A DNA stretch of 47,229 nt, the filler included, from Jimgerdemannia flammicorona (Eukaryota), in the NCBI GenBank assembly GCA_003990765.1. It is 2 parts of 2 records of this genome, joined end to end, with 100 filler letters (N's around TTAATTAATTAA, not from the genome) between each part and the next. Parts side by side here need not be neighbours in the genome. Positions count along the whole stretch, not along the records: positions 23,671 to 47,229 come from RBNJ01001093.1; 1 more part is not named here. One strand, given 5' to 3'. The notes beneath the pieces were generated by a model. The model was not told the origin of the DNA and searched no databases. It saw only the letters and a program-made list of their open reading frames with translations. Below, piece after piece: positions 12,744-47,229 of this stretch; position 1 is the first letter of the stretch, and each line of letters begins with the position of its first letter. A program made the position numbers and the translations under genes.

Positions 12744-12753
12744 TCTTCCTCCT
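12744..12753 (-). other. Polypurine tract of family A
   Basis: AGGAGGAAGA on the minus strand, abutting the LTR start. Confidence 0.75.
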
Positions 12754-15730: not shown

Positions 15731-15799
15731 TATGTGTGCTTGTTCTGGTTCTTGTCTTTCTTGTGCTCAAGTTTGGTAATCTTGGTGGTGGCAGAGGCT

Positions 15800-16200
15800 C
15801 CTTTTCCAGTAGATTCAAAGCCTTATTCTTCTCTCTTGGTCTTGATGAGTTCAATGGCTTCAGTGATCTTGGGCTTCTTGATTTCATAGATCAGCATCTG
15901 GCCAATCCTGTCATGCTTCTTGACTTTGAATAGAGTGGTGGGATTGTGATTCCTGACTATGAGGAAGATCTTGCCAGTATAATCAGGGTTAATTACTCCT
16001 CCTTTGACTGAGATTTCACTTTTGGCCAGACTGCTCCTAGTCTTGATAATTATGACATAGTTCTCTAGCAGCTTGATTCCAATTCCAGTACCAAGTAGGG
16101 TGTTGGTCTGTGGTTTGAGAGTAGCTTCTTGAATACTGGTAAGGTCCATTCCTATGGCTCCTTCAGTCTTATATTCTGGAATCTTGGCTTTAGGGTGAAA
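15800..16200 (-). pseudogene. dUTPase domain between protease and RT
   Basis: Motifs DL, TGI, RSSLA, GGVINPDYTGKI and DRIGQML, plus eroded motif 5 (RE.*GFESTG). Confidence 0.88.
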
Positions 16201-16599
16201 CTTCTTGACCTTGAGGGTGATGTCTGGTTCTTATTTCTCCTCATCATCACTGTTAGCTTGCAGCTCTGGGGGCTGGTCATCTTCTTCAGTTTTTCTTTTG
16301 CTTCAGCAGCTTCTTGCTCATATTTCTGTTGGCAGATTTTCCTAACTTCACTGATATAGGACCAGTAGTCATTTAGGTGTTCAGAGCAGTATATCCTAGT
16401 ATCATGAAGGAATCTTCCTTGAGAGACATAGCCATTGATAATCTTGGTATATCACTGCTCATCTGTGAGCTTGGGTGTCTTATTCTTGTTCTTGTTCACC
16501 AAGTACATAAAGACTTCTGTGTCCTCTTCATCAATTTCCTCTATGTCTGGTAGAACTTCCTTGTGGACATTGATAGAGACTTGTACCTTTCTTCCTCTA

Positions 16600-18310
16600 T
16601 AGTTGATTTATATCTTTTGGACATTGAGGTCAATGATGGCCTTGGCCTTGTAAAGCCATTGATTGCCAATGAGGATGTTATAGTTGGTGGTACTTGTAAC
16701 AATCACATCTACTAGAATAGTGGCTCTTCCTATCTTGATAGAGACTTCTCAGATTTTGCTAAGAAGGGTAGCTTATATACCATCTGCTGTAACATAGATC
16801 ATTTTGGTAGACTCTTCAATGTCCCAGTCTAGACAGTCAATTGTCTTCTTGCTCATGAGATATCCTCTAACACTGATATAATGATAGTATCAAAGATACA
16901 ATCTTCAATCTGATATGTATAGGGTATAGGCTGATGTCTTGTACTGATCTTTAGATTCTTCATCTGAGTTTTTGGATTCTTTCTATGCATTGTGAGCATC
17001 CACAATCTTGGACTCTTGATTCTTGGCAGTAGTTGTAAGTTCTACTCTCACCTACTGTCTGAAGGCAGAGACTTTGGCTAACTGTCCAAAAGTAGCATTG
17101 ACCTTCTGTTTCTTAAGATCCTTGATATTATACTGATGGATCTTGGTCTTACACAGCTTCTGTTCCTTCTTGCTTTTACTTTTTTCTGAGACTGGAGTAG
17201 TGTCTTCAATAATTTGGTAAATAGCTTTATCTAACTCTATATCTTGATCAATTTCCTCAGATTGGGTCTTGCTTTGAATAGTGATAGCTGGGGTCTTCTT
17301 TGGTCTTCCAACTAGCTTGTTATTACTCTTCTTGTCTTAGGGCTTGGACTGGGTTCTGGTACCTTCAGTAGCAGGGCAGAATTCAAGCTCTTTATAGTAT
17401 TATTCATCATCAGTGTCATGAATCTCCTTGATGACTACTATATTGATTTGTTCTCTAGTTCTGCTAGCATTGCTTGGTTGGGCTTTGCAGCTTATTTCAG
17501 TTATACAATTCTTTATATAGTGGCCTTCTTCACCACATCTGAAGCATGTGATATTGTGTTCTTCTGTAGCAGCTGCAAATCTCTATACTGGTCTTCTGTT
17601 AGCACTTCAGACTTCTCTAACAATATCACCAAGATATACAGTTATCTTAGTGAACTGCTTGGCAAGTTCCTCCACTAGGTCAGCTTTGGCTACCTTGGAG
17701 ATAGGTGGAGATAATTATCTGTTTATAACTGTAGTAGGTATGATACCAATTGGTTTTGATAGCTCTATCTTGATGCTAGTTATTTTCTCTATTAAGTATT
17801 CAGTATGATGTCTAGCAGTCCAATATCTCTATACAAAGACCACTTTCTGATCAAGAGTTAGTACAGCTGAGATAGATCAGATTGCTAGGGCAATTTCAGG
17901 GTTAACTCCTTTGAGGAAGGTTAAATCTGCTATTTGTTTATTCCTTGAGGGTATCATCATAGTCAGCCAAGACAATCTGGTAGCAGATTCAGATATTGAA
18001 TGAGTTAAGATCTTCACTGAGTTCTTGGCAGATAGTATTGAGTTGATTCTTGAAAGCTTGCTTGATCTCTTCAGTATAGTATATTGTTCTGAAGAAGGCC
18101 TTCATATTGGCAAGTTTGGCTTCACCAGCATTAGTAATAGTAGCTACATTGAACTTATCTCTGATAGATCCTCTGAGGCTGACTAGTAGAAGGGTCAATT
18201 GTACATCCACACCAAGAGCTCATATGGCAGAAAATTGTTCAAAGTCTTCAATGAAGGTCAGGATTGACTCTTCAGTAGTATATCTATAGAATATGGGGAG
18301 ATACATTTCT
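16600..18310 (-). pseudogene. Family A gag and aspartic protease, degenerate
   Basis: Gag start (PIFYRYTTEESILTFIEDFEQF), zinc knuckle at ~17500-17550 and protease with ILIGNQWL (~16660). Confidence 0.8.
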
Positions 18311-18411
18311 ATCTTATCTTGAATTCTATAGGGGTAACTCTTGTAGTCAGGGTTGTTATTGTGATAGTTATTTATTTTTCAGCTTAAAAGTGAGAGATTT
18401 ATCTTGAATCA

Positions 18412-18428
18412 CCAGCCAATGGGTACCA
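18412..18428 (-). other. Primer-binding site TGGT(G/A)CCCATTGGCTGG
   Basis: Lies 3 nt after the LTR end. Same PBS at ~25866-25882 (-) and 37007-37023 (+). Cognate tRNA uncertain (possibly His). Confidence 0.75.
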
Positions 18429-18431
18429 AGT

Positions 18432-19920
18432 TGTCACATAGTGGTCACTGAGTCCTTCAAATATATCAGATTCTCTTTAAGATATATCTCTTAGCTAACT
18501 TAAGTTTGTTATAAGTAAGTTCTTATTAGAGTACCTTCCTTAGATCTTATAGTCCTCAAACTTCTTATCTTTAATGTTTTTTTATCTCTTAGATTGCTTG
18601 CAAGACAGTGTATATAAGTGAACCAAAACTGACTTTATTTCAAAAGAAATAAGAGAGGTATTTATACAAAATATAATTCAATGATTGCTAAGATATAAAG
18701 CTAAATATAAATTTCAATAACTAAAATAAAGTACTAGGATAGGGAAACCTGTTAAGTTCCAGTATTGGCACTGATGGTTACATAGGTTCAGAATACTAGT
18801 ATAATTTCAGTGATATAGGAAAATAGTACTGAAATAATTCAGAGTCACCTCAGAATACCAGTAGTGGAACAGCTGTTATATAGGAAAAGAGTGCTGAAAT
18901 AATTCAGTATAACTAAGGGACTTTTAGAGCAAAATGTTCAGGACCATAGGGGCTTCATCCTCATCAGAGGTCAGGATGTCTTTGAAGGAGATGAGGTTCA
19001 CAAATATCTCATCTATCTCATCATCATAATCATTATATAGATCACACATTTTGTGTATATCATATGGGATTATGTCATTGCTGATAATGTCATCATATTT
19101 AGTAGTGATAGAAACAAAGAGGTCTAGAGCTCTCCAGTCTATGAGATTCTCTTCTATGAAATAGGGGACAAATGTGGGGTCATGAGGAGGTAAAACCTGG
19201 ATGCTTGGGCCTTGAAATACTGAGATCAATCCTTACAGAAATTGGTCTGAGTTGTCCTGGAGGATGGGATGCCAGAAGTCTTCTACTTCATCACTATTGA
19301 GAGTGATAGTGGACTGTGCTTCTGTAGCTATCCTGGTTTCATATTGATACAGCAGGCTAACAGATCTCTAAAATCTGAGATTCTAATATACTCTAAGTTA
19401 GAGATCAACTACGATTCATGTCTGAAGATCTGATGGATCTTAGCTGTTCTTGCTTCATATATATCTATAGGAGTAGCATCTTATAACTCTTGAGGGCTGG
19501 CCTGTGGGAACTCCTGGCAGAGAAGGTTTCCTATTTTATACTCCTACTATATTTAGAGACATTCAGTAGTAATTGCAATCCTTGTTTCTATTTTAGAGTA
19601 ATAGAGAATATAATGATAAGAGTCACCAGTACCCAGGTTGACACTAGGAGTCCTTCTTAAGCAGATTCTCATAACTATTCTGATGTCTTGGAATATCCTT
19701 TCTTTGACTGAGATACTTTGGTAATTCCTTAACCTTGAGGTTTGGCAAGTAGCAGGTATTTCATTTATGGTAAGTCTTTGAGCTATTTTGGAATTGATAG
19801 GTCTTATTGGTTACTGCTACTATGGTTCCTTGATCCTTCTTTTATATTTCTCAAGATATCCATACTGTGGTTACAATGACTTACAGTTAGTCATCATTAC
19901 TTATCTTATATACTGTATGA
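18432..19920 (-). repeat. Family A 5' LTR, copy 1 (first ~80 bp missing)
   Basis: Collinear with 25886-27350. TATA (TGTATAAATA, ~18658-18667) and AATAAA (~18634-18639) on the minus strand. Confidence 0.88.
18924..19672 (-). pseudogene. LTR(U3)-encoded ORF of family A, ~250 aa, unknown function
   Basis: Same frame recovered in three LTR copies. ORF track fragments 18924-19229 and 12045-12368. Confidence 0.7.
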
Positions 19921-20149
19921 TAAAACCATTTTGTCATGGCTATAAAGATAATAAATATAAAAAGCAAAAAAAGAGAGACTAAGATAGAATATACAAATGC
20001 TCAGTACCAACTATAGAAACAATATTGACACCTAAACACCAAACAACTGACATGAGATATATAACTCTATATACTCTTAACAATAAGAGAACCAACTGAG
20101 GTGAATGAGGGAAAAGAAAGAAATAAAGAAAATATGTAATTGCTCAATT

Positions 20150-20745
20150 ACCCAAGTATCTTCATAATCTCAGTCAGGCAGAACCTGACTATGAGATGAT
20201 CACCAGAGTTATATATAGTATCAATAGTATGGTAGGCTGTCTCATGATGAGTATGAAGAGGATAGGCATAAAAGCTCTTTTATCATTCATTACTAGTAAA
20301 CCAATTGAGCTGTTCATTACAATCAGAGGTATCTTGGAAGATAGAATAGGAATCATTGAGAAGACCATATCTGAGGAGATAACTATAATAAAACTTATTT
20401 CCACAGAGACAGTGACAGGATTGGCCAAAATAACCATAGCACTAGGCAAGAGCAGAATGCACAAGCTGGGGAGGGAAGGAGAGGACACAGTCAGTGCCCC
20501 TAGACTGCAAGTGGTCTTAAGTTATAATGTACTGAATGAGTGCTTGAGAGGAGAAGACCCATTCCTATAGCAGCTAGTCCTAGAGGAATGACTGAAAGAA
20601 GGAGTTGAGCAGGTGAGTCTTGTAGACCTGGGGATAGAGGTCCTATATTATAACTATTTCAGTAGTTGTAACTTAGAGATAGAGAATAAAGATACTGCAC
20701 TTATAAAAGAGTTCTGAGAATTTGTAAGTAATTAGTTACTGATAT
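20150..20745 (+). pseudogene. Degraded coding-like segment of unknown origin
   Basis: 124-aa ORF 20196-20570 continues past stops to a GTAAG at ~20744. CpG-free like the neighbouring repeats. Confidence 0.3.
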
Positions 20746-20749
20746 TGAG

Positions 20750-22810
20750 ATATTTCAATAATATCTATTCCTTTGTCTGTAGATAAGATCGTCTTTTAAA
20801 ATCTTTTAGCAGACAAATTAAAGTTTGAAAAAAATAATTTTTTAAAACATTATTTTTCTGTTAAAAATTTATCTCAATTTGTTTAAAAACAAAATACCAA
20901 AGGTAGAATTATTATATAAAAAATTATTAGTAAAATTTTTTTTAAAAGCTATTATGATTTTAAAAGTTATAAACTTTTAAAATCTTGCCTCTAAATATAG
21001 GTGCAAAACAGTCAAAGGGATATAATAGTTATAGCTAACTATATCTTCTAAGAGATAACTGATCTAATAGTAGCTTGAGATTTATTTAATTTGGTAAAAT
21101 TTACTAAGTATGTTCAGAACATTCTATTGGACTTTTATGAAATAGAGGAGTACTAGACTAAGAATATTTATAAGGAGTAGAGAAGCTATAGCTTAGTTAA
21201 TAATAGTATTCTAAATATTAGTATAAATATAGTTATAGATCTCAGTAGTTATAGCTAGATATATATTTAAGAGTTATAGTTATTTATCTAGTTTGTTATA
21301 GTTATCTATTTTAATATATAGTATTTTTAATACATATACTTTTAGTTCTGATTAGTAAGGTTTCATTAGTATAAATCTTATATTCTGTGACTTCAAGTTG
21401 ACTCAGCTTTATGATCTGTGACTTTGAGTTAATTTCTTTAAAGAGTGATATATAATTATAATAGCTTAGAGATTATGTACTTATATACTTTATAGACTAT
21501 TATGAAATTTATTTAAAAATTTTAAAATATAAATATAATCTTTTATAATACTTGAGATTTATTTATAATATTTTAATTTTAAATTTATATTAAATATTAT
21601 ATACTTTACTAATTTCTTATTAAAGATCAGAATAGATATCTTGGTTATATGTATATTTATATTAGAATTATATTTATATATTTATACTAGTTATATCTAT
21701 ATTTATTATAAAAACTACTTTTATTATTACTAAAATACTTATAGTTAATATACTTATATTTAAATATTATTAGACTAATTTTAGCTTATCATAATATAGT
21801 ATATATTTTTATATATTTATTTATAAATATTTAGTACCAATATAACTCTAATTTATAGTTAATAAAAAGTAATTTTTTTATAATATAAATTAAATTAAAT
21901 TAAATTTAACTTTAGTTCAATTTAATTTAAAGTTCAATTTAAATCTATTATTTTAAAATTCAGTAACTTACTAAACTATATCTAAATTTAATAAACTTTA
22001 GTAAATTAGATATGTTTTATTAAGATAAATCTAATATAATAAATAATATTAAATTTGGTTATATATTTATTAAGTTATTGTATTTGATATTTATAACAAA
22101 AAAAAAATAAATTAAATTAAATTAAATAAAATCTCAGTTTAATTTGAACTTAATTTAATTTATTTAGAAGTACTAATTATAATTACTAATAATATAAATC
22201 TAATAAAATTGTATAAAATTATGTATCTTATAAAGTTTATATCTTAATATAATAAATTAATAATAGTTAATATAAAGATAAATAATATAATTTTTTTTTT
22301 TTTTTTTTTTTTAACTTTAAATAAAGTTATATATTTTCTATTTATTAGTTAATAAGTATTAAGTTTTAATATAATAGATTTATAACTTAAAAAATATATC
22401 TTTTAAATTATTTTTAATATTAAAGCAAGTAATAAAATATACTTTATAATTATAACTAAAGATATTATTACTAAACTATTAAAATAAAACTAAAATATAA
22501 AATAATATGCATATATCTTAATATTTTATTATTAGAATGTACTTATTTTACTAAGCTTTTCTGTTATTTATATATGTTTAGAGTGTAAAGTTTGAGCTAT
22601 TAATTATAATATTAAGTTAAATTTAAACTATATTATATTATATATAAATATATTTTATTAATTAATTAGAAATATAAATTTAAAGTAGGTAGTAATTATA
22701 TATTATTATACTTTTAAGATAAATATATACAACTACTAAATCTTTAAAAAATATAAAATATTATTAGAAATCTTTAGAAATTTTAAATTTATAAATTAAG
22801 AGTAAACCTC
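20750..22810. repeat. Extremely AT-rich eroded repeat relic
   Basis: Nearly all A/T with abundant TA dinucleotides. Abrupt transition to GC-balanced DNA at ~22810. Confidence 0.6.
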
Positions 22811-22936
22811 TAGTCATCGATTTGTAAGTAATGTTTTACAGAAGTCAAAATTGGTCTGGCTTCTACCGTATTTGGTCCGAAATACGCCGCTGCCTAAAAC
22901 ACGCCCAACCACCACCACGAAATACTCCAAACCACC

Positions 22937-23400
22937 ATGCCCAAAACTCACAAGGTCCGACCTACTACCTTAAATAGAAAGCGACCAAAGAACAAAGACA
23001 AAGGCCAAGTGATTCAAATGGATTCAAGAAGCCAAAAGAAACGTAAACTCTCAGATAGTGAGGAGGCCGATGAAGGTAAATAGTTATCTTGAACTGAGTT
23101 GTACTTTGCAAGTCTCTCGTGTGATAATGTATGCTATATGCACCAACTCAAACTTACTGTTTCAACAGTCGCCAACCGGCAATCACCTACGCCAGGTGCG
23201 TATCACTCTGGGAAACGATTGTGGCCTGTTTCTCCTAGTGGTCGTGATTTGACTTTGCATTTGATGGAGTCAAAAAGCTCTCTGCAACTTGCCGACTTTT
23301 ATTCATAGCTCCTCTTAACTCTCTTCTCTACGCACAGGACTGGAGGACGAGGCCTGTGATGACCCTGAGAAAAAAAAGGCCAAAACGTCCAAAATAAGAG
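22937..23400 (+). CDS. 5' exons of an unknown basic/acidic (NLS-like) protein; continues into the assembly gap
   Basis: ACCACCATG start. Exons 22937-23075, 23169-23195 and 23338-23400 with GT..AG phase-1 introns in one frame (MPKTHKVRP..KKRKLSDSEEADE/VANRQSPTP/GLEDEACDDPEKKKAKTSKIR). Confidence 0.6.
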
Positions 23401-23570
23401 GTAAGCGAGCAATCATTCGAATGGTTAGAGTATCAATTTCTATTCGGTAGTGCGTTTTCAGCAATGGGAGAAAGGGGCTAGGAACCATAGTTACGTAGAG
23501 CTCCATATTCTTGAACGTCCAGTTAAGAGAACATATCTGATCATTCGCGCTGGTTTCTTCACTTCACGGC

Positions 23571-23670
23571 NNNNNNNNNNNNNNNNNNNNNNNNNNNNNN
23601 NNNNNNNNNNNNNNTTAATTAATTAANNNNNNNNNNNNNNNNNNNNNNNNNNNNNNNNNNNNNNNNNNNN
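23571..23670. other. Assembly gap spacer (N44-TTAATTAATTAA-N44)
   Basis: Symmetric 100-nt artificial linker with stops in all frames. Confidence 0.95.
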
Positions 23671-23834
23671 AATTTAGGGCTGCTGTTTTGTTTGCTCGTG
23701 ATGCGGCAGGAAAGAACAAAGAAAAAGAACAAAGAAAAGAGAGGGAACAAAGGAAAGGGTGATGTCACCAAAGTGCGGCAGGAAAAAAAAACAAGAGCAA
23801 AATGAACAAAAGAAAGGGTGACGTCACCAAAGAT

Positions 23835-24017
23835 TTCAATCCGAATGGATCAATCCGGATGGGTCAATCCAGATGGGTCAATCCGGATGGATCAATCCAG
23901 ATCAATCCAGATCAATCCAGATCAGATCACAAGACCAATCCGAGTTGATTCGAATCCATCACATGACGAATCTGAATCGAATCTCATCTGGATCAACTCC
24001 ATTCGTTCAGAGCACTA
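23835..24017 (-). mobile_element. Possible DNA-transposon terminus (hAT-like) with subterminal GATCAATCC(A/G)G repeats
   Basis: Ends in GTTCAGAGCACTA (reverse complement TAGTGCTCTGAAC) exactly where the family A protease is cut. About 8 short repeats inside. Partner end not seen. Confidence 0.4.
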
Positions 24018-25885
24018 TTTGTGGACATTGATAGAGACTTATACCTTTCTTCCTCTATAGTTAATCTGCATCTTCTGGGCATTGAGATTAATGATGGCCT
24101 TGGCCTTATGAAGTCATTGATTATCAATAAGGATATCATAGTTGGTGGTACTTATAACAATCACATCTACTGAGATAGTAGCTTCTCCTATCTTGATGGG
24201 AACTTCTCAGATTTTGCTAAAGAGAGTAGCTTGTGTACCATCTGCTGTGATATAGACTATCTTGGTGAACTCTTTAATGTTCCAACCTAGGTGGTCAATT
24301 GTCTTCTTGCTCATAAGATATCCTCCAGCACTGGTATCAATAATGGTATCAAAGATACAATCTTTGATCTGACATGGGGTATAGGCTGATGTCTTGTGCT
24401 GATCTTTGGATTTTTCACCTAAGTCTTCTGATTCTTCTTGTGCATTGTGAGCTTCTACAATCTTGTACTCTTGATTCTTGGTAGTAGTTGCAAGTCCTAC
24501 TCTCAACTGCTATCTGAAGGCAGAGACTTCAACTAGCTGTTCAAAAGTAGCATTGATCTTCTGTTCCTTGAGGTCCTTATAGATATCATACTGGTGGATC
24601 TTAGTCTTATATAGCTTTTATTCCTTCTTGCTTTTGCTTTCTCCTGAGACTAGAGTAGTATCTTCAATAATTTGGCAGACAGCTTTATCTAACTCTATGT
24701 CTTGATCAATCTCCTCAGATTGAGTCTTACTTTGAATAGTAACAGTAGGGGTCTTCTTTAGTCTTCCAACTGGCTTGCTGTTGCTCTTCTTGTCATAGGG
24801 CTTAGACCAGATTCTGGTACCTTCAGTAGCAGAGTAGAATTTGAGCTCTTGTAGTATTCTTCATCATCAGTATCACCAATCTCCTCAATAACTACTGTAT
24901 TGGTTTGTTCTCTGGTTTTGTTAGCATTGTATAGTTGGGCTTTGCATCTTATTTCAGTTATATAATTCTTTGTATAGTGGCCTTCTTCTCTATATCTGAA
25001 GTATATAATATTGCATTCTTCTATAACAGCTGCAAATCTCTATGCTGGTCTCCTGTTGGCACTTTAGACCTCTTTAACAATATCACTAAGGTGTACAGTT
25101 ATCTCAACAAACTACTTGGCAAGTTCCTCTACTGGGTCAGCTTTGATTATCTTGGGGGTAGGTGAGATTGATTGTCTGTTTATAACTGTAGCAAGTATGA
25201 TACTAGTTGGCTTTGATGGCTCTATCTTTATGCCAGTTATTTTCTCTATTGAGTGTTCAGCAGGGTGTCTGACAGTCCAATATCTCTGTGCAAAGACCAC
25301 TTTCTGATCAAGAATCAGTGCAGCTAGGGTAGACCAGATTGCTAGGATAATTTCAGAGTGAACTCCTTTAAGGAAGATTGAATCTGCTATTTGTTCCTTA
25401 AGGACATCATCATAGCCAGCCAAGACAATCTAGTGGCAAATTCAGATATAGAATAAGTTGGGATCTTCACTGAGTCTCCGGCAGATAGTATTGAGTTGAT
25501 CTTTGAGAGCTTGCTTGATATCTTCAGTATAGTATATTGTTCTGAGGAAGGTCTTTATGTTGGCAAGTTTGGCTACACCATTATCAATAATAGTGATTAT
25601 ATTGAAATTATCTCTGATAGGTTCTCTGAGACTGACTGGTAGAAGGGCCAATTGTGTATCTACACCAAGAGCTCATACTATGGCAAATTGTTCAAAGTCT
25701 TCAATGAAGATCAGGATTGACTCTTCAGTAGTATATCTATAGAATGTAGGGGGATATATTTCCATCTTATCTTAAATTCTTGCAGAGATGACTCTTGTAG
25801 TCAGGGTAGTTATTGTGGTAGTTATTCATTTTTCAGCTTGAAAGTGAGGGATTCATCTTGAATCACCAGCCAATGGGCACCAAGT

Positions 25886-27434
25886 TGTTATGTAGTAGTC
25901 ACTGAGTCCTTCAAATATGCTAGATTCTCTTCAAGATATATCTCTTAGACTAAATTAAGTTTGTTATAAGTAAGTTCTTATTGGAGTATCTTCTTAAGGT
26001 CTTATAGTTCTCAAAATTCTTATCTTTAAACTATCTTATTATCTCTTAGATTGCTTGCAAGAGATTGTATATAAGTGAACCAGAACTAACTTTATTTCAG
26101 AGGAAATAAGAGGAGTATTTATACAAAATATAATTCAATAGTTGCTAAGATATAAAGCCAAATATAAATTCTAATAACTAAAATAAAATACTAGAACAGA
26201 AAAAACTGCTAAGTACTAGGGTCAGTACTGGTGGTTATACAGGTTCAGAATGCTGGTATAATTTCAATAGTATAGGAAAATGGTGCTGAAATAATTCAGT
26301 ATCATATTAGAATGCTAGTATTGGTATAATTCAGTATCACCAAAGGACTTTAGAGCAGAATATTTAAGACCATAGGGGCTTCATCCTCATCAGAGATCAG
26401 GATGTCTTTAAAGGAGATAAGGTCCATGAATTTGTCATTATCACATAGGTCATGTGTTTCATATATATCACATATCTTGTATATATTGTATGAGATGACA
26501 TCATTACTGATGACATCATCATTTTCAGCAGTAGCAGGAATAAGGAGGTCTGGGGCTCTTCAGTCTATGAGGTTCTCTTCTACAAAATAGGGGACAAATG
26601 TGGGGTCTTAGAGAGGTCTAACCTGGATGCTTGGGCCTTGGAATATTGAGATCAATCCTTACAGAAATTGGTCTGGGTTATTCTGGAGAATGGGATACCA
26701 GAAGTCTTCTACTTCATCACTGTTAAGGGTGATAGTGGACTGGGCTTCTGTAGCTATCCTGGCTTCTAGTGCATTAATACATCAGGCTGATAGATCTCTA
26801 AAGTCTGAGACTCTAACATACTTCAAGTTAGAGATTGACCATGGTACATGCCTGAAGATCTGATAGATCTTCTTAGCTATCTTTATTTCATGTATATCCA
26901 TAGGAGTGATATTTTGTAGCTCTTGAGTACTGGTCTGTGGGAACTCCCAGCAGAGGAGGTTTTCTATTTCATACTCCTACCATATTTGAAGGCATTTGGT
27001 AGCAATGGTGATTCTTGTTCCCATTTTATGATAGTAGAGAATATAATGATAAAAGTCACCAGTACTCAAGTTGATACTAGGAGTTCTTCTTGAATGAGTC
27101 CTCATGACTCTTCTGATGTCTTGGAACATTCTTTCTTTGACTGAGGTACCTTAGTGGTTTCTTGACCTTGAGGTTTGATGAGCAGCAGATATTTCATTTA
27201 TAGTAAGTCTTTGAGCTATTTTGAAATTAGTGGGTCTTGTTGATTGCTGCTACTGTGGTTTCTTGATCCTTCTTTTATATTCCTCAAGATATCCATATTG
27301 TGGTCACAATGACTCATGGTTAGTCATTATTGCTCATCTTATATACTATATAATCTTTTTGTGCTCTGATCTGGTGGCTTGTAAGAAAAGACTATCTCTT
27401 ATACTGATGTCATCATTCTGGGATCACTGTTACA
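25886..27434 (-). repeat. Complete family A LTR (1549 bp, TG...CA)
   Basis: Minus strand begins TGTAACAGTG and ends ..TAACA, followed by ACT and the PBS. Confidence 0.88.
26350..27105 (-). pseudogene. LTR(U3)-encoded ORF of family A, 251 aa when read through point stops
   Basis: ATG 27105 to TAA 26350 spans 756 nt in frame (MRTHSRRTPSINL..EDEAPMVLNILL). Confidence 0.72.
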
Positions 27435-28254: not shown

Positions 28255-29491
28255 TCACGATTCTATCGCCACATGCTTCTCGCCCTTCGTCCCCTCCACC
28301 TCCATCCCCACCCCATCCACCTGCTGGTCGGCCACCAATGCCACCATGTTCTTCAAATTGTTCGGGTCCTGTACGCGCAGGGTCTTGATACGCGCGATGC
28401 TGTTGCGGTCACCGTCCCATTGTCTATATAGGATGGAGGGAATTGTGAGTCAGAAATTTCGAGTGAGAGATGGAACGTGACGGATACTGATCGAATAAAA
28501 ATGATAAAGATGGACGGACCTTATGATTTGAACATTCTTGGGGTTGGTCAGGTCCGGTACCTCTGCGTGATGGAATGGGAAGTCGTTTTCCGGAAGGAAC
28601 AGATTAGACGAACGAAGCGCACATTTTACGATACATATCATCACGTTCATGATCGAGACCTCAAAGTCAACCCCTTTTTGTCGACCAACATTACATCAAT
28701 GCATCCACCATAATCACCCGTCCCTTCCCATCTCCTTCCCGCCAACGGTACCTCCCTACACCCATGTCAATGAAGACACTCAAAAAAGCAAAGCACGCAC
28801 CAAACCCCTTCGCATACTCGTCCCGCTCCTTCTTAATCAACGCTATCAGTAAATCCTCCCTGGCAGCTTTTGGTCGCTGCCCTTTCCGATGGAGCGCTTT
28901 AAGCTCTGTGAGCTCCTCGTCGTGCCGCTTCAGGTACCTGTTAACGGGGGAATGATGCACGAGTGAGCGAACGTCGCAAGATGCGGCGATGAACGATTGG
29001 GAGTTCGAACCGTACATGTCGATAAGGTCGTGCAGCTCCAACCGGGTCGCGCAGGGCAGTGCGTCGTCCAACGCGTAGCGAAACCAGAGCCAGCGTTCGA
29101 CTGCGTTAGGAGGAGAACGGGTATGAGCGAGAGAAATAAGCGGGCAAAGTTCTTTGTAGTCGTCCATACAGTTTCCGAAAACCCCTCGCTGCGACGACGG
29201 CACACTATCACACCGAAAACACAAAGACGCCCAATGTCAACCCACCCAAAGGGTTCGCCGCTAACCTCCTCTCTGCCATCTTCTTTTCCAACCTATCGTT
29301 GCGCATAAGGACTCGCGTCAGTTGGCTCGCCTTGCGCCCTGATGGGTGCAGTGTGTCGCGGTTCTTGATCGTTTTGAGCGTATGACGTTTGTTGTTGGGC
29401 TGCGTTGGCGATTGGACGAAGAGGGAGGTATGAATGACTATGCGCAGATGAAAAAGAAACTTGATTGCAACTGAGTCCGAGATGGTACCAT
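28255..29491 (-). CDS. TMA16: Translation machinery-associated protein 16 (pre-60S factor), 6 exons, 196 aa
   Basis: Exons 29491-29489, 29399-29246, 29100-29016, 28937-28801, 28562-28520 and 28423-28255, all GT..AG and in frame. Motifs LHPSGRKA, RHDEELTEL..RPKAAREDLL..EYAKGFEVPDLT..WDGD. Confidence 0.9.
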
Positions 29492-37023: not shown

Positions 37024-37433
37024 TGATTCAAGATGAATCCCTCACTTTCAAGCTGAACAACAAACAACTGCCACTACCCGAACAACCATACAAACCGAGC
37101 CCCAATACCCAGACAAGATGGATATGAGACCACCAGTATTCCATGGATATACCTCAGATGAATCAATCATCACCTTCATTGATGATTTCGAGCAGTATGC
37201 TGCCGTAAGGACTCTGACAGCAGCACAGCAAGTAGCTCTCATGCCCTTCAGCCTACGAGGCCCTGCCAGAGCAGCATTCACAGCTGCAACCTATGCAGGA
37301 AATGATGCCGATGCTATATATACTGACAGTACAGAAGACCTGGCTCCGAAACACATATTATACAGATGAGATCAAGCAAGCCCTAAAGGATCAGCTCAAC
37401 ACAACATGCCAAGGAATGAGCGAGGACCCAAAC

Positions 37434-39498
37434 TATAAGCGCACAACCTCCAAGCCACCGAAACTACACGTCACCCTCTGAACCAAGCCACTGAAATCAC
37501 ACGCGACCTCCGAACAAATCTGGAAATCACCTGCTTGATCACGAAGCTGAGTCAAACCGAAGTCACAGCGCACAAAGCTGAGTCAATATGAAGTCACAGA
37601 ACATAAGATCTACACAAACAGAACCTTACCAATCAGGACCAAATGCATATATACTGAGCACTGAGACACGTTGAATCAGAGAACTAAAACAAACAATAAC
37701 CACAACTTCCAAACACACAAACATGACCACTGAGATCTACAACTGTATCCGCACTGACATTTGGAATGCCATTGTCAACTGAGCCACACCCCCCCTGCCC
37801 CTCATGAATATCCATAGCCTGGCACCCCTCTACTTCGTGGAAGCCTGATGGAATGCCCTGAATATGCTTAGCAAGGCCCACCGAATCGGACAAATCTCAA
37901 GCTACTACCAGATTGGCCGCCTCCTGGAAGACATGATCAAATACCACCATGATACAGACATTACCCAGATGTCTCAACACCAGAAGCTCATCGCCCGTAA
38001 ACATCGAGAACTCTTCTATGAGTACAACACCTTTATTCCCCGCCTCCGAGTTACTACCAGTGAAATGGTTACTACCCTGTCCTACAGCCAAATCGATGAC
38101 ATGATACAAGAGATCAACCACAAGTACCTCAAATATGTCCAGACTACAGACAGAACCTTTCCGCACCCTGATGACCATATCCTGCAAATGCCCCAAGTTG
38201 GATACACCATGAAGGACATCTATGATATAATCCACTTTGATGAAGATGAAGCAGAAGACAATGATCCCTCTGATGCCGACATGACCTCCAGCCAAGAATC
38301 TCTGCCAACCCTGATCACACTGCCAAACTTACCGATGAACTTGCAACAGTTCATAACTGCATACGAGACTTATTGGGACAATGACCACTGGCACGAATAC
38401 CAACCCGCATTCACCCCCGATTACTTCAATTACAATGAAGAGACCAGAGAACACAACCTGTACCTTCAGACAACCCTTGAGATCGAACCAACCACTCCAC
38501 CACCCAAGTACGAGCGACATGAACCACAGCTGCCAGCATACTATAACCCTGCAACTCATAGTGCCATAACCTATAGAAGGTACGCAGACAGTGAATCCGA
38601 TGAAAGTGAAGACAATACACCCATCCTTTGTCCATCAACACCTTATCCAGCATACGAAACAGACGATGCTATCCTGTGGGACGGAGATGAAGTTCCAATG
38701 TATTATTACCTCAGCAAACAAGGAGAAGTAATCCGCAAACTACTCTTCCTAGATAACTACTTCATCAGAGATGATGCAATTGATGGTGATATCATCGAGG
38801 ACTACCCAGATAGTGTCTAAACCTATAAATAGTCTAGCAGTCATAGTATAGTTAGATTAGCCTTGTACGACATAACTGTGAACTGACTCAGCAGTCAGAC
38901 GATCTCTTGATATGTCAGATTACACTTGTACTACGTGACTGCATTCCGACTCAGCAAGGTACTTAGTGCTACATCCATATTCAGTATAGTCCAAATAGCC
39001 CCTCACTAGTATAAATACCCCCTCCCCCAGACCTCAGAATCTCAGACTTGAACAATCCGAACACAACTCCTGAGCACTTCCCCACAATATCCCTTCACAC
39101 AAATACTCCTAGTATAGCAATATCATGAATAGCAAATAAACCTATTCCATAACCCACAAACCACTCTTAAGTAAATTCGCTCCCTGTTAGGTCCTACTCC
39201 TAACCCCATCACGAAATTTCCTAATTGGGTATTGTCTGCAGCGATATGCCAATTCAACTAAGCTGGTCTTAGTTTCTTGAACTTCCTGAAATACGGAAAA
39301 TCCTGAACATCCAGAACTAGTCCGAAAAAGGACTTTGGTTGAGACGTCAACCCGATCTAGAAATCAATAAGTGTAGAGAATGTACTCCATACGAAATTGA
39401 TCTTGACCATAAGAAAATAGTCTTCCAGAACATCCAGAATATCCAGAAAACCCTCCCAGAACTATATAATGGTTACCCTAAAAAGTAACCCTCTTACA
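37434..39498 (+). repeat. Element B 5' LTR (2065 bp)
   Basis: Direct repeat of 43480-45548. TATAAATA ~39010, AATAAA ~39135. Confidence 0.93.
37723..38820 (+). pseudogene. LTR(U3)-encoded ORF of element B, 365 aa (two CGA->TGA stops near the start)
   Basis: Starts MTTEIYNC. The stops are CGA in the 3' LTR copy. 318 aa remain open (37864-38820). Confidence 0.8.
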
Positions 39499-39501
39499 AC
39501 T

Positions 39502-39512
39502 TGGTAGCAGTG
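39502..39512 (+). other. Primer-binding site TGGTAGCAG (initiator tRNA-Met type)
   Basis: 3 nt after the LTR end; complementary to a tRNA ending CUGCUACCA. Confidence 0.75.
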
Positions 39513-41524
39513 GTTTACAATCCAATTCCACTTCAAGACGCTTCCTTACCCCACTACAAACCCTTCTGCGAATTCCTACAAGTTGGTATAAAGCCCAACC
39601 TCTGAACTGGAATTTATCTGAACCATCTGACAATCTGGAGAGAATTGAACCTGACGTACAAGGACAATTTGACCTCCACACCTACAACAAGTGGGACAAA
39701 CTTTATTCTAAGAAAGAAGTACTCAAGTTAAACCAGCAAATAGGCGAAACCCTATTCACCGAACTCCTTGCACTACACCCAGCAAGTCAAGACGAAGAAG
39801 GTCTTATTAAAGCCTTCTTTACTCTTCTCAACAAGAGTTTTATCAGCTCCACAAATCTGAGCAACCTAGGACAACCAGCAGCAGTCTTTCTAGCCTTAGT
39901 TCCTCACGAAGCCCAAGCCTCTGTAGCCAAGTGGCTCAACTCTACCGACTTTTACCGCACCAGGACCAAGACCGCCTTATACTATCGATTCCAGAACAGC
40001 AAGGCCTGCCATATCCTCAAAGAAGAGACAAGAGAAACCCTTCATCAACTACCTGACCCTGAACCTGAAGCAGGCCCTGCTACAACCCTACCTGAATCTG
40101 AAACCAATACCGAACCTGAACTTGACTTTGAATTAAGTCCATCTGAAATCAGATATACAACTGATTCTGTCTACTTTGACGCTGAGCAAACCCAATTACA
40201 CAGGGACCAAACCAAAGAAAAGGAGGAGTATCTCACCGAATTCGATCTTGGATACACCACCGAAGGAGACACACATCCATCAGGACAGAATACACCTACA
40301 TAGCAACAAATAGCTATCTATCAAGCCCTCACTCCAGATCCACAACTACTACTCCAGCAACTTACACAGACCCAAAGAACTCCATCACACTCTGCACCAG
40401 TACCTCAAGTAGTACCAGTAACACCACTACAAGCAGTCCAACCGCCTCTAGCAATCAACATGGCAAACCAACAGATTCTAGACCTCACAGCCCAAGTAGC
40501 TATAATGGCAGCAACCATTACTGCCTTAGCCGAACAGACCTGACCTATCAAAAATCTGAGCCTACCTACCTTCAATGGTACTGCACAAGAAGTCCAAAGC
40601 TTCATTAGTGTAGTTGACACCAACTTCAAAGCCAATCAATGGACTAATGAGCGAGTCGCTGACTGCGTTCTGACAAACAATCAAGACCACACCCTGGAAC
40701 AACTCTTTGCTACAACTACAGCCTATGTCTGCCAAGTTGTTACATTCTTCCAAGGACCTGCTGAAGAATGGTGGTGAACCCTTCCTGAAAAACCCCTCAT
40801 ATGGGATACCTGACCTGCAGTAGTTGCTCAGAATGCAGCAAACAATGCCCCAGGATATGGAGCCCATCCTGTAGCCCCTGGACTCAAACAACTCATAATT
40901 GTCCAATACCGCAGCGAAATCATGATCGCTGAATCTCGAGTAAAACTCCACAACCTCAAATTTGATATACATGGCAAAGAAGAATTCGAAACCTTCTGTA
41001 CAAAACTCGAGTCACTCCTGAACACTGTTGGCCTAGAATATATTGCCAATGATGAAGCACGAAATGGTACAAGAGCAGACCATTTATTCGATGCCCTACC
41101 TGAATAGCTTACTAGAAAAATCTGAGAACAAGGCTGCCCAGTTGGTTGTGATCACCAACAATGGTGCCTGGCAAGAATCAAGACCATGGTCAAGTGAATC
41201 CTAACAGCTGGACCAATTCTGCCTCGAAGACAATTCAATAATAAGAAAAAGACTTGGACCAAGAAAGAAGAACCCAAGCATAAAGTATCTCGAGCTCCCT
41301 CCACATCCACCTCTTGGACACCCAGAAATCATGAACCCACCCAGCCAAGTACCTTCAAGAAACTTACTGAAGGTAAAAGAAACGAACTTTGAAGAAGCGG
41401 AGCATGCTTCTATTACCGAAAGACAGGACACATGGCCAGTGTCTGCCCCAACCAAAAACCCCAAACAGCAATACGAGCAACTGTTACCACTCTGCACCAC
41501 CTCAACAACCTGACCACCAGAACA

Positions 41525-41935
41525 CTGGACTTTGTCAAGTTAAGACAAACTGCTAAGGCCCCAACCAAAGGAAGTCAAAAAGCAGCCGGATATGACCTGT
41601 ATACCACCGAAGAAGCTACAGTCTCCAACCGAGAAGTCAAACAAGTCTACACAGGAATCAGTATCCAAATTCCTGAAGGACATATTGGAAGAATATGCTG
41701 TCGCAGCAGCCTAGTATTAAAAGGACTCTCAGTAGAAGGAAGAGTCATTGACGAAGATTATACAGGCGAAATCATTGTCCTCATCCGAAACCACAGTTGG
41801 ACACCCTTCAAGATCCCTATTGGCTTCTGCATTGCCCAGATCTTGTTCGAAAAAATCAAGTCAACCCTGACAGTCAAGAAAGTCCCTGAACTACTACCCA
41901 CCATCAGAGGATCCAAAGGATTTGGCTCATCAAAC
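41525..41935 (+). other. dUTPase domain between zinc knuckle and protease
   Basis: All five motifs: AGYDL, RSSL, VIDEDYTGEI, IAQ and RGSKGFGSS. Confidence 0.93.
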
Positions 41936-42897
41936 AAGGCCCCAGCCCAACCTACTATAAGCAAAGAAGAACAATTCTATAAGAAGATAGAAGATGGATA
42001 TGTACCAAGTGGCCGATGCCCTCATGGTATTGGAATGTACTCTTCCCGAATGATTGATGATTGCTTCTCTTGTGTCAACGAACTGGCTCAAAGAAGAACC
42101 AATAGAAGAAAAGCTCCTACAACTGAAATCACCACCATTGGATCAGACAAACTGCTCACCCTTAAGGCTTTTATCAATGGAGCACCTGTTAAGATTATGA
42201 TAGACAGTGGTGCCTCAGGCAATTTCATCAATGAGGAGACAGCCAACAGACTCAAGGTCTTCACCTCCCCAGTACAGCAAACTCAAGCAGTTGCTACAGC
42301 TGATGGAACCTCACATGTTATTAGCAAAGAAGTCCGCAATCTACTCTTCTGAATTGGCGACTACCGAGTACATGTTACCCTCCAAATCGTACCACTTCCT
42401 GACAATGAAATCATCCTTGGAACCCCATGGTTGAAACGAGAAAACCCCATGATCGATTGGGTAAACCATTCTCTGACCATCAAGAAAGGACACTACAACT
42501 TCAAACTACAAGGTGAAAAGGACTCACTCAACTCTAGTGACCCTGGACCAAAGATCACTCACATCAACAAGCTACAACTCAAGAAATTGGCCAAGAAATG
42601 TCCTCTCTTTGCTATCTCCATCTGCCCATCCAAAGGAGAACCCGAGAACTTTGAAGAAGATTTTTCCAAAGTTGACAGCCGTGTCAGACCATCTACAAAG
42701 CTGAACAGCAAGTTCATTGGACCATTCGAAGTCATTGCACAAGTCTCTCCAACCTCCTACAAATTGGCGCTACTGGACACCATTAATATTCACCCAGTCT
42801 TTAATGTTCAACATCTCAAGCGATACAATGACAATAATGACGAGCTATTTCCAAATCAGACCACCAAACCACCTGCACCTGTCATCATTAATGACCA

Positions 42898-43055
42898 AGA
42901 AGAGTATGAAGTTGAACAAATCCTCAACAAACATGGCAACAAGAACCATCCTGAGTACCTGGTCAAATAGAAAGGTTACCTGATCCACGATGCAACCTGG
43001 AAACCTAAGACCAATCTCCAGAATGCTACCAACCTAGTTCAGGAATATGATTCCT
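42898..43055 (+). other. Chromodomain
   Basis: EEYEVEQILNKHG..EYLVK*KGY..DATWKP..L.NA..LVQEY. Confidence 0.88.
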
Positions 43056-43465
43056 TGAACAACTAGAACCAAATACTCTGCACCTATCTGTACATACTAT
43101 ATATTATCCTCCTGAACATTATAACTATCACGAACTCAGCAAAACAAGACAAGAATACCGACCCTCTGAAAAAATAGCAAAACTGAAAGCAAGCCTATTC
43201 TCCCTGTACCACTAGTGGGAAACAAGGCATAGACATTTAAGAAGATTTCTTAGAGGAAATTCTCTAGCAGTGAATGACGTCAGAATCACTTCTGGTGCAT
43301 GGCATTGAATACACAACCCTTTAACATGTGAATCCAACGCATTAGGCAACTGTACTATGAGCATGCCACTTTCTGAGAAAATGGACCTTACCAGACTTTT
43401 GACCTCCCAAACGGTGTAACAATACTAGAACAAATTAGAAGGTCCCAACGAGGATGTCAAAAGCT

Positions 43466-43478
43466 AAGAAGGAGAGAG
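43466..43478 (+). other. Polypurine tract of element B
   Basis: AAGAAGGAGAGAG just before the 3' LTR TG. Confidence 0.85.
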
Positions 43479-43479
43479 T

Positions 43480-45548
43480 TGTAAGCACACAACCTCCAAG
43501 CCACCGAAATTACATGTCACCCTCTGAACCAAGCCACTGAAATCACATGTGACCTCCAAACAAATCTGGAAATCACCTGCTTGATCATGAAGCTGAGTCA
43601 AACCGAAGTCACAGCACATAAAGCTGAGTTAATATGAAGTCACAGAACACAAGATCTACACAAACAGAATCTTACCAATCAGGACCAAATGCATATATAC
43701 TGAGTACCGAGATACGTTGAATCAGAGAACCAAAACAAACAACAACCACAACTTCCAAACACACAAACATGACCACTGAGATCTACAACTGTGTCCGCAC
43801 TGACATTTGGAATGCCATTGTCAACCGAGCCACACCCCCCCTGCCCCTCATGAATATCCATAGCCTGGCACCCCTCTACTTCATGGAAGCCCGATGGAAT
43901 GCCCTGAACATACTTAGCGAGGCCCACCGAATCGGACAAATCTCAAGCTACTACCAGATCGGCCGCCTCCTGGAAGACATGGTCAAACACCACCATGATA
44001 CAGACATTACCCAGATGTCTCAACACCAGAAGCTCATCACCCACAAACATCGAGAACTCTTCTATGAGTACAACACCTTTATTCCCTGCCTCCAAGTTAC
44101 TACCAGTGAAATGGTTGCTACCCTATCCTATGGCCAAATCGATGACATGATACAAGAGATCAATCACAAGTATCTCGAATATGTCCAGACTACAGACAGA
44201 ACCTTTCCGTACTCTGATGACCATATCCTGCAAATGCCCCAAGTCGGATATGCTATGAAGGACATCTATGATATAATCCACTTTGATGAAGACGAAGCAG
44301 AAGACAATGATCCCTCTGATGCCGACATGACCTCCAGCCAAGGATCTCTGCCAACCCTGATCACACTGCCAAACTTACCGATGAACTTACAACAGTTCAT
44401 AACTGCATACGAGACTTATTGGGACAATGACCACTGGCATGAATACCAACCCGCGTTCACCCCCGATTACTTCAATTATAATGAAGAGACCAGAGAACAC
44501 AACCTGTACCTTCAGACAACCCTCGAGATCGAACCAACCACTCCACCACCCGAGTACGAGCGACATAAACCACAGCTGCCAGCATACTATAACTCTGCAA
44601 CTCATAGTGCCATAATCTATGGAAGGTACACAGACAGTAAATCTGATATGTAAAAGCAAAGACAATACACCTATCCTTCGTCCACCAATACCTTATCCAG
44701 TATACGAAACAAACGATGCTATCCTGTGGGATAGAGATGAAGTTCCAATGTATTATTACCTCAGCGAACAAGGAGAAGTAATCTGCGAACCACTCTTCCT
44801 AGATGACTACTTCATCAGAGATGATGCAATTGATGGTGATGTCATTGAGGACTATCCAGATAGTGCCTAAACCTATAAATAGTCTAGCAGTCATAGTATA
44901 GTTAGATTAGCCTTGTACGACATGACTGTGAACTGACTCAGCAGTCAGACGATCTCTTGATATGTCAGATCACACTTGTACTATGTGACTGCATTCCAAC
45001 TCAGCAAGGTACTTAGTGCTACATCCATATTTAGCATAGTCCAAATAGCCCCTCACTAGTATAAATACCCCCTCCCCCAGACCTCAGAATCTCAGACTTG
45101 AATAATCTGAACACAACTCCTGAGCACTTCCCCACAATATCTCTTCATACAAATACTCCTAGTATAGCAATATCATAAATAGCAAATAAACCTATTCCAT
45201 AACCCACAAACCACTCTTAAGTAAATCCGCTCCCTGTTAGGTCCTACTCCTAACCCCATCACGAAATTTCCTAATTGGGTATTGTCTGCAGTGATACGCC
45301 AATTCAACTAAGCTGGTCTTAGTTTCTTAAACTTCCTGAAATACAGAAAATCCTGAACATCCAGAACTAGTCCGAAAAAGGACTTTGGTTGAGACATCAA
45401 TCCGATCTAGAAATCAATAAGTGTAGAGGATGTACTCCATACGAAATTGATCTTGACTATAAGAAAATAGTCTTCCAGAACATCCAGAATATCCAGAAAA
45501 CCCTCCCAGAACTACATAATGGTTACCCTAAAAAGTAACCCTCTTATA
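43480..45548 (+). repeat. Element B 3' LTR (2069 bp)
   Basis: Direct repeat of 37434-39498. Confidence 0.93.
43769..44870 (+). pseudogene. LTR(U3)-encoded ORF of element B, second copy; net 4-bp insertion near 44648 frameshifts the tail
   Basis: ORFs 43769-44653 and 44619-44870 match 37723-38820. Confidence 0.8.
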
Positions 45549-45553
45549 CAAAT

Positions 45554-47229
45554 ACATTCTATACCAGAATTCGATATTAGATAATTTTTGCAGATTATAC
45601 TGCTGCTACCTGAGATCAAGTAGCTAAAGCAATCTTCATGAAAGGAGTCCATCCAGAAATAGCCATGGCCATCTGCTCATCACCAGTGATTCTGGATCTG
45701 CCACAGAGGGTCACCTATACTCAGTAATACTGGATAGCCAGACACCCATAAGACTATATAATGGAAAGAGTTACAGGAGTCAGAATCGAGGCATCTAAGG
45801 CAACCAGTGTGATCCCCACCACAATGATCAATTGAAACACACCTCAGCCAAAAGCTATAGAGCAGCAAAAGAACAGTGACCCTATGGAGGAACTTGCCAA
45901 AAGGTTTGCTGAAATGACTGCCCACCTGGGAGATGTGGTAAAGGAGATTCGAGGAAGAGACCGCTGCCCTGTCCAGAAGTTTGCCACCACCTCAGACAAG
46001 AAGAAAGGCACCTACTATACTTGCAGAGAAGAAGGCCACTACTCCTATGAATGTATGAGCGAAACCAAGTGCAAGGCTCAACCAAGCAATGCCATATGAA
46101 ACAAGGAGCAGGCCAATATAATTACCTTCGAGGAGATCGGAGATTCTGACGAAGAAGAATGGGAGGCCTATTCTGCTCAGACCACTAAGAAGGATGTTTG
46201 CAAAGAACCCTACAAGAGACTGCCAGGAAGACCCAAGAAGAATCCAGTGGAAAAGCAGATGGAAACTGCCACAGAAAGTCAAGTTGAAGAGATGGACCAG
46301 GATATCAAGCTGGAGCAAGCAGTTCAAGATATCATCCAAGGAACCACTCCAGCCAGTGAAGGAGAAAAAGAAAAGAAGCTTCACAAGACCAAGACCTTCA
46401 AGTATGATATCTTCAAGGATCTCAGTCAACAAAAGGTCAATGCAACCTTTGGTCAGCTCATAGAAATCCCAACATTCAGATAGCAAATGAGGTTTGGACT
46501 TGCCGAAACAACTAAGGAACAGGGATGGAAGATAACTGAGGCCAATAATATTCAAGAGGACTCAGAAGAAGAAAGTGAGGACAATCGCAAAACCTCTGCC
46601 TATGCAACATGCCAAATTGAGGATTGAGTCTTTGAAGCCATCATTGACATAGGAGTAGGAGGATGTCTCCTCAGTAAGAAGGCAGCAGACCGCCTAGGTT
46701 GGGATGTGGAAGAAGCAACCAAGCTAGTATTCGTCACAGCCGATGGCACAAGAGCCACACTTCTGGGAAAGATCCGAGATGTTCCCATCAAGATTGGAGG
46801 AGTAACAATCCCAGTAGATGTAATCGTAACCAATGCCACCAACTATGACATCCTCATTGGCAATCAATGGCTTCACAAAGCCAAGGCAGTAATCAATCTC
46901 AATGCTCAGAAGATGCAGATCACCTACCGGGAACAGAAGATACGAATTCCCATCAATGTCAACAAAGGGGTCCTGCCTGATATGGAGGAAGAAGAGAGTG
47001 AGCAAGAGGAAGCTTATATGGTGACTACCCCAAAGAAGAAGAAAGTCGGATAGATGAGTGAAGAAGAATGGTGCAAGAAGATTGCAGAAGGTTATGCCCC
47101 ACAAGGAGTCTGTCCTCATGGAATCAAGATGTACTGTATGGAGCATGTCAATGATTGCTACCAGTGCACCATCGGAACCAGGAAGATCTACTAGGAAAGA
47201 AGCCAGAAAGCTCTCGAAAAACAGATCAG
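45554..47229 (+). pseudogene. A2 gag C-terminus, zinc knuckle, aspartic protease and Cys module
   Basis: KGVHPEIA, TCREEGHYSYEC, IIDIGVGG..DILIGNQWL and GVCPHG..DCYQC. Confidence 0.85.

Follow-up and report, generated by a model that had tools for sequence, protein, structure and literature searches.

The window analysed here, a stretch of 47,229 nucleotides from Jimgerdemannia flammicorona (GenBank assembly GCA_003990765.1; two genome parts joined by 100 filler letters), is a repeat-rich eukaryotic region with few host genes. Among its repeats is element B, a retrotransposon bounded by two long terminal repeats (LTRs) of about 2 kb, each of which carries on the sense strand a copy of the same 365-codon frame. 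Retrotransposon LTRs are treated as non-coding control regions, are masked by annotation pipelines and are assumed to be neutral in dating. We describe the element, the frame and the signals around it (coordinates in Table 1), and argue that the frame is probably a genuine protein gene of the family to which element B belongs.

Element B is a true LTR retrotransposon. Self-BLAST and MAFFT alignment give a single pair of direct repeats (37436-39496 and 43482-45546) with 95% identity over 2065 columns. A short target-site duplication flanks the pair, and the departures from TG...CA ends, a TA start in the 5' copy and a TA end in the 3' copy, are transitions. The empty site is also represented, with contigs of two public runs joining position 37433 directly to the sequence 3' of the 3' LTR. 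The primer-binding site next to the 5' LTR starts with TGGTAGCAG, presumably resembling the 3' end of the initiator tRNA-Met, and the polypurine tract ahead of the 3' LTR recurs in another family copy, in run X4, with the same junction between purine tract and LTR start. Paired LTRs with a short target-site duplication, a primer-binding site and a polypurine tract, as expected for a chromovirus, are all present. The 102 substitutions that separate the two LTRs (37434-39498 against 43480-45548) are transitions without exception; 43 of them fall at sites derived from CpG and another 42 are C/T with A following or G/A with T preceding, which looks like a RIP-like (repeat-induced point mutation) or methylation-driven C-to-T process acting on repeats. 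Given such a process, LTR divergence is no clock in element B.

The frame starts 289 bp into the LTR and ends 678 bp ahead of the LTR end. Translation bears out what a preliminary description of this DNA had claimed, namely a 365-codon sense frame in both LTRs whose lesions are specific to each copy. The 5' copy is interrupted by two TGA codons, at both of which the 3' LTR carries CGA, and the 3' copy shows no premature stop before a 4-nt insertion, past which the shifted frame is free of stops over its last 84 codons. As the stops and the frameshift are private to single LTR copies, the ancestral frame was intact. An in-frame stop lies 16 codons 5' of the ATG, hence the frame is no continuation of pol. 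The other two sense frames over 37723-38820 contain 14 and 33 stops.

Concerning the placement of the frame within the LTR, the TATA box and the AATAAA that had been pointed out downstream of it are where they were said to be, and both are identical in the two LTRs. One contig of the public run X19 starts between them, at 39062, preceded by a 22-nt loose end which we take to be the end of an Illumina adapter. Summed contig depth in this run is 0-15 over most of the frame, 101 at 38989-39105, 1425 at 39106-39222 and 837 at 39223-39339; none of the runs listed is recorded as RNA, that X19 is RNA is a guess, and contigs are unable to show transcript starts or levels or, reliably, splice forms. 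These data give a hint of a transcription start near 39062, which would leave an R (repeat) region of ~100 nt, a U5 (unique 5') region of ~340 nt and the frame in U3 (unique 3'). Taken together, the two signals downstream of the frame, the contig end and the depth peak at 39106-39339 make the U3 placement plausible: of the original proposal, the position of the frame inside the LTR and ahead of the TATA box and AATAAA stands, and the U3 assignment itself is a plausible reading, with the hint from X19 added to it. The R-U5 part at 39106-39339 (+) also has 2-3 times the summed depth of the remaining LTR in three DNA runs, and about 100 times in X19; sequence shared with related families, or abundant short transcripts, may account for this.

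Upstream of the frame, the LTR contains two copies of a 31-bp tandem unit, each with a TGAGTCA that is presumably an AP-1/Gcn4-type site, followed by TATATA at 37648-53, 70 bp 5' of the ATG. Judged by their sequence and position, the repeats and the TATATA may be the frame's own promoter. A promoter in these first 290 bp could drive a frame-only message, or it could make the frame part of a long leader. The latter leads to a different placement, in which the gene, though real, would belong to a very long R or 5' leader instead of U3: the transcription start would fall within the LTR's first ~290 bp, and the frame would be the first open reading frame (ORF) of the genomic RNA, repeated at its 3' end, like ORF0/ORF1 upstream of gag in some plant elements. 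The 31-bp repeats and the TATATA would suit such a leader, and so would the A at -3 of the ATG, the in-frame stop upstream of it and an X19 depth of 59-65 in bins 37468-37701, above that of the frame itself. It would require, however, an R of ~1.5 kb, far beyond the R lengths known from retroelements, and it sits badly with the ordinary U3/R/U5 layout downstream of the frame (TATAAATA at 39010 with AATAAA 125 bp later), with an X19 depth at 39106-39339 about 100 times that of the frame and with the hint from the adapter-tagged contig end at 39062. We regard the leader placement as unlikely.

Several lines of evidence bear on whether the frame is coding. When the LTR was shuffled 5000 times, the longest open frame in the sense direction had a mean of 101 codons and a maximum of 270, so that no shuffle reached 271, against observed open stretches of 323 and 310 codons and of 365 codons before the lesions. 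Codon frequencies in the frame correlate with those of the element's dUTPase-protease-integrase region at 0.55, compared to 0.20 and 0.19 for the other frames, and base composition by codon position follows the same pattern as in pol. An exhaustive HMMER search of 1.84 billion representative proteins gave three matches at E <= 0.001, P0001, P0002 and P0003. P0001 (247 aa, E 8.5e-103) spans codons 115-365 with 163 of 247 residues identical (66%) and 83% positive, shows two in-frame gaps of exactly 2 residues each and has the same C-terminal end. P0002 (128 aa) is 90% identical, shares the starting Met and carries Arg in place of either stop of the 5' copy. P0003 was rejected as a relative, being a tandem-repeat protein that also matches 22 unrelated Pfam families and that owes its inflated score to a 38-residue match (30-32% identity) occurring six times. 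In word-indexed searches of protein libraries, relatives made up 1 of 268 and 1 of 21 candidates. Two pattern scans of metagenome contigs (379 and 92 matches) and one of viral contigs (152 matches) returned nothing that could be confirmed as a relative of the frame, tblastn being used for the metagenome matches.

The alignment to P0001 was compared with a neutral expectation by mutating codons 115-365 at random down to 66% identity, with 3000 runs for each of several models whose transition:transversion ratios went from 1 to infinity. The frame stayed free of stops in just 0.6-3% of runs, a statistic that is biased because P0001 and P0002 are in the database through a gene caller that found open frames. 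The share of positives, which is much less affected by this database-entry bias, had means of 75-77% and maxima of 0.817-0.833, compared to 0.834 observed for P0001.

A further comparison is possible within the LTR family, which is highly repeated in four public runs (4541, 503, 515 and 313 contig pieces aligned). Most copies differ from the window at 803 places, and among the best-supported 40 of these, 13 lie within the frame. Eleven of the 13 are common to both LTRs, and are hence older than the insertion of element B; nine of these 11 are synonymous. As a neutral control we used the 63 sites at which the frame differs between the two LTRs (22 synonymous, 41 non-synonymous), changes that arose after insertion under the same mutation process. 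The synonymous share before insertion exceeds the one after it (9/11 against 22/63, Fisher one-sided p = 0.005), a count that stems from the best-supported 40 of 803 places and is not a ratio of non-synonymous to synonymous rates (dN/dS). Signs of past purifying selection are thus present in the alignment of the relatives, in the neutral simulations and in the synonymous excess among family copies. The length of the frame relative to shuffles, its codon usage, the two relatives, the neutral expectation and the family-copy comparison together indicate that in the family the frame has evolved as a gene coding for protein and that its decay in the element B copy is neutral.

The window also holds an old, AT-mutated relic of the same LTR, in which the 5' part of the LTR and the first ~115 codons of the frame can be recognised. 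It has two tblastn matches to the frame, one of 38 aa with 53% identity (E 3e-6) and one of 49 aa with 47%, and a blastn match to the LTR of 364 nt with 70% identity (E 3e-39). Since the relic includes the start of the frame, the LTR family with the frame has long been present in this genome. It was also the sole match (20.6-21.4 kb) in a tblastn search of the window, which found no paralog of the frame in gag or in the other elements there. The relic sits in a stretch of 17-32% GC (20000-23000), between copies of another element.

These results bear as well on the idea that the frame is a passenger, that is, a captured piece of a host gene or of another element, kept open by its earlier history and of no role for the retrotransposon. 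The match to an ordinary captured host or transposable-element fragment that the preliminary description had named as refuting it did not turn up, Pfam and the protein libraries yielding neither a host gene nor a known transposable-element domain. The lack of a known retroelement domain can be read in favour of a passenger, together with the finding of just two relatives, whose context is not given, and with the non-autonomous state of the element B copy (see below). Nevertheless, a passenger would leave several things to be accounted for: the absence of any host-like homolog among the 1.84 billion representative proteins, a codon usage and per-position composition that match the element's own pol, the nine synonymous changes among the 11 pre-insertion family differences, the C-terminal end that P0001 keeps at 66% identity, and the older relic in the window, by which the gene has long been part of the LTR. 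On balance a passenger seems to us rather improbable. That the frame is a chance opening in T- and G-poor sequence and never coded for protein, as could be argued from an A/C-rich sense strand that lowers stop-codon density and from one antisense frame with just 5 stops, is extremely improbable and already close to refuted by the shuffles, by a codon-usage match specific to the frame, by diverged relatives that keep the frame with indels in multiples of three alone, and by the excess of synonymous differences.

The predicted protein of 365 residues has an isoelectric point of 4.5, with 18% Asp+Glu, 8.7% Tyr and 7% Pro; net negative charge is absent from its first 120 residues, beyond which it is strongly acidic. 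No membrane segment was found (highest 19-residue hydropathy 0.62), no Pfam family matched at E <= 0.01 even when the full 365 residues were submitted with X at both stops, and a sequence search of the PDB gave nothing below E 0.1 (best 0.12). The ESM Atlas provides leads only, the best feature score, 0.89, belonging to an unnamed cluster and a score of 0.87 to one of eukaryotic (Mucoromycota) proteins, and its named-cluster search gave no usable match. AlphaFold2 models reach a mean pLDDT (predicted local distance difference test) of 32.7 over residues 43-365 and of 42.8 over the N-terminal 180 residues; apart from helices within the first 175 residues they show little. Of the helical N-domain and acidic tail proposed for this protein, the composition fits the tail, whereas the helices have these low-confidence models as their only source; the N-terminal third is probably helical. 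By these results the protein is neither env-like nor Sag-like. Activation domains look like acidic, aromatic-rich tails, and by that likeness the data allow a transactivator role.

The internal part of element B is a single gag-pol frame interrupted by stops, which ends near 43063, ~400 bp before the polypurine tract. Pfam identifies in it a dUTPase (PF00692, E 7.7e-32) upstream of an aspartyl protease (E 2.7e-9), directly followed by the SH3 domain of the integrase C terminus (SH3_Tf2-1, PF24626, E 3.4e-16) and, with a single stop read as X, by a chromodomain (Chromo, PF00385, E 1.6e-11). The dUTPase and the chromodomain of a dUTPase-bearing chromovirus are hence there, and the full pol order is not, as reverse transcriptase, RNase H and the integrase core were absent from element B in both translation and Pfam searches. 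We read this gap as an internal deletion; element B is a non-autonomous, dUTPase-bearing Ty3/gypsy chromovirus and a dead copy.

The dUTPase (41393-42349, +) has the zinc-knuckle region of gag on one side and the protease on the other. At the start of the internal part, 273 codons (39482-40303, +) are open; they begin in the last 17 nt of the 5' LTR and have no Met. They are in the gag-pol frame, which makes the region upstream of the protease ~640 codons long, gave no Pfam family match, and may represent an extra N-terminal gag domain with a lost start codon. The best long database match of the dUTPase-protease ORF is a frog retrovirus-like protein, with 43% identity over 47% of the query, and this was the only protein found when polyprotein relatives were searched with that ORF.

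Table 1. Features of element B, its LTR-borne frame and the related LTR relic, in positions of the window
Feature	Position	Strand	Remarks
5' LTR	37434-39498	+	2065 bp; starts TA, ends CA; limits set from alignment and flanks
3' LTR	43480-45548	+	2069 bp; starts TG, ends TA
LTR-borne frame, 5' LTR copy	37723-38820	+	365 codons and TAA (ATG 37723 to TAA 38820); TGA at 37780-82 and 37846-48
LTR-borne frame, 3' LTR copy	43769-44870	+	4 nt longer; frameshift near 44645
Two copies of a 31-bp tandem unit, each with TGAGTCA	37540-37599	+	period 31, 1.9 copies, 86% matches
TATA box TATAAATA	39010-39017	+	likely main LTR promoter; 190 bp past the frame stop; identical in both LTRs
Possible transcript 5' end	39062	+	one contig start in run X19; would be the U3/R border
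AATAAA	39135-39140	+	likely polyadenylation signal near the end of R; identical in both LTRs
Target-site duplication, left copy, CAAAC	37429-37433	+	5 bp
Target-site duplication, right copy, CAAAT	45549-45553	+	one transition from the left copy
Primer-binding site, starts TGGTAGCAG	39502-39513	+	3 nt past the 5' LTR
gag-pol, single frame interrupted by stops	39482-43063	+	long gag region, dUTPase, protease, integrase C-terminal SH3, chromodomain
Polypurine tract	43466-43478	+	13 nt; stops one base short of the 3' LTR
Old AT-mutated relic of the same LTR	20651-21424	-	5' part of the LTR and first ~115 codons of the frame; many stops

The explanation that we favour, and hold to be rather likely, is that element B is a dead, internally deleted dUTPase-bearing chromovirus whose family carries a genuine 365-codon protein gene located wholly in its 2-kb LTR, with U3 as the most likely place. 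Both LTRs acquire the gene during reverse transcription, since it lies downstream of the polypurine tract. Within the genomic RNA it would follow pol as the last ORF, in the 3' U3, and we infer that it would have to be expressed from a separate message, which could be a subgenomic RNA made by splicing or could start at a promoter within the LTR's first 290 bp, and which would terminate at the AATAAA of the LTR itself. The product would be a soluble acidic protein, rich in Tyr and Pro. As to its role, our guess is a trans-acting accessory factor that aids the family, such as an acidic protein that activates the LTR promoter or one that counteracts silencing by the host.

Some points weigh against this explanation. 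The start at 39062 is one contig, from a run only guessed to be RNA, and if that run is RNA the depth of 0-15 over the frame gives no sign of expression. Both AlphaFold models are poor and provide no evidence of a fold. Only two relatives were found in the protein libraries, known as protein fragments alone, with their genomic setting, LTR or not, not given, and the bias of the stop-free statistic and the restricted set of places behind the constraint count, both described above, have to be kept in mind. The present copy is dead, with 41 non-synonymous differences among the 63 sites that differ between its LTR copies of the frame, as under neutral decay. Finally, no autonomous partner of element B was seen, so that the gene might belong to a non-autonomous lineage only.

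A protein gene located in the LTR is known from some retroviruses and apparently has not been reported for retrotransposons of this kind: full-text literature searches, which left most subscription journals uncovered, turned up no LTR retrotransposon other than retroviruses described as having a protein-coding ORF within its LTR, so that the absence is unproven. By layout, the closest analogue is the superantigen gene sag of mouse mammary tumour virus (MMTV), followed by the nef and bel genes that overlap U3. The sag gene lies in U3 of a betaretrovirus LTR and encodes a type II membrane glycoprotein. Like it, the frame described here is a sense ORF of ~1 kb wholly in the LTR and upstream of the TATA box, hence present in both LTRs and in need of its own message. 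Kinship with Sag finds no support in the protein, which has neither sequence likeness (no Pfam family) nor a hydrophobic segment, and the carrier is an env-less chromovirus retrotransposon instead of a vertebrate retrovirus, in which the frame is known from its sequence alone.

Lentiviral nef and the foamy-virus bel/tas/bet genes run from the 3' internal region into U3, and some of their products transactivate the LTR. The likeness is that an accessory coding sequence shares the 3' LTR with cis-acting signals; the difference is that those genes start upstream of the polypurine tract and merely overlap U3, whereas here the whole gene, with 289 bp upstream of it, is inside the LTR.

Extra ORFs are also found in Ty3/gypsy elements, such as the aORFs of plants (PMC7264820), ORF0 of Retrosat2, RIRE3 and RIRE8 (PMC3485330) and the ORF3s of bdelloid rotifers (PMC5408684), and the LTRs of Retrosat2 are themselves long (>3 kb, given as 3.2-kb; PMC3485330). 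In the available portions of these papers such ORFs are, like the present frame, lineage-specific and of unknown or non-canonical function, often orphan and under weaker constraint than pol. In contrast to the present frame, which lies wholly inside both LTRs and past the polypurine tract, they are internal, located upstream of gag or between pol and the 3' LTR; those same portions describe none within an LTR, and no sequence likeness was found.

Concerning the carrier, dUTPase-bearing fungal chromoviruses have already been published from Postia, Phanerochaete and Tuber (PMC2864245). As far as the accessible text of that report goes, they resemble element B in having gag and pol in one frame, the dUTPase beside the protease and a C-terminal chromodomain on the integrase, and unlike it they do not lack reverse transcriptase, RNase H and the integrase core. 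A figure legend of that report mentions an 'additional ORF of unknown function', which is not in the LTR.

A bolder extension, which we consider quite unlikely, is that every LTR of the family, solo LTRs included, is a self-contained gene, with enhancer-like repeats, TATA box, ORF and polyadenylation signal, whose acidic trans-acting product would activate the family's main LTR promoter or blunt host silencing. If this were true, hundreds of scattered LTRs would supply a helper protein to the family, including non-autonomous copies such as element B. A conserved LTR protein gene, as in the explanation favoured above, would mean that some retrotransposons independently evolved the 'complex retrovirus' trick of an LTR-borne accessory gene, that solo LTRs could be protein-coding loci, and that LTR-divergence dating is biased in such families. 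The orphan protein could also reveal a new way in which mobile elements handle their host, which here seems to use a strong C-to-T mutation defence.

Regarding the surroundings, the insertion of element B interrupts the gag region of another Ty3/gypsy-like element (37037-37433 and 45554-47229, +), with a zinc knuckle at ~46020 and an aspartyl protease at 46628-47050; copies of that element which do not carry the insertion are present in the public runs. A third element family forms a tandem array at 11988-27427, where a repeat of ~750 bp occurs three times (11988, 19257 and 26683) at ~7.4-kb spacing and 82-85% identity, and its internal part resembles, in reversed orientation, the protease region at 46588-46990 with 73-74% similarity. 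Further pieces on the minus strand are a likely host gene fragment with a Tma16 domain (E 6e-15) at 28691-29233 and, at 1542-2540, part of a reverse transcriptase (RVT_1, E 5e-18) that belongs to yet another element.

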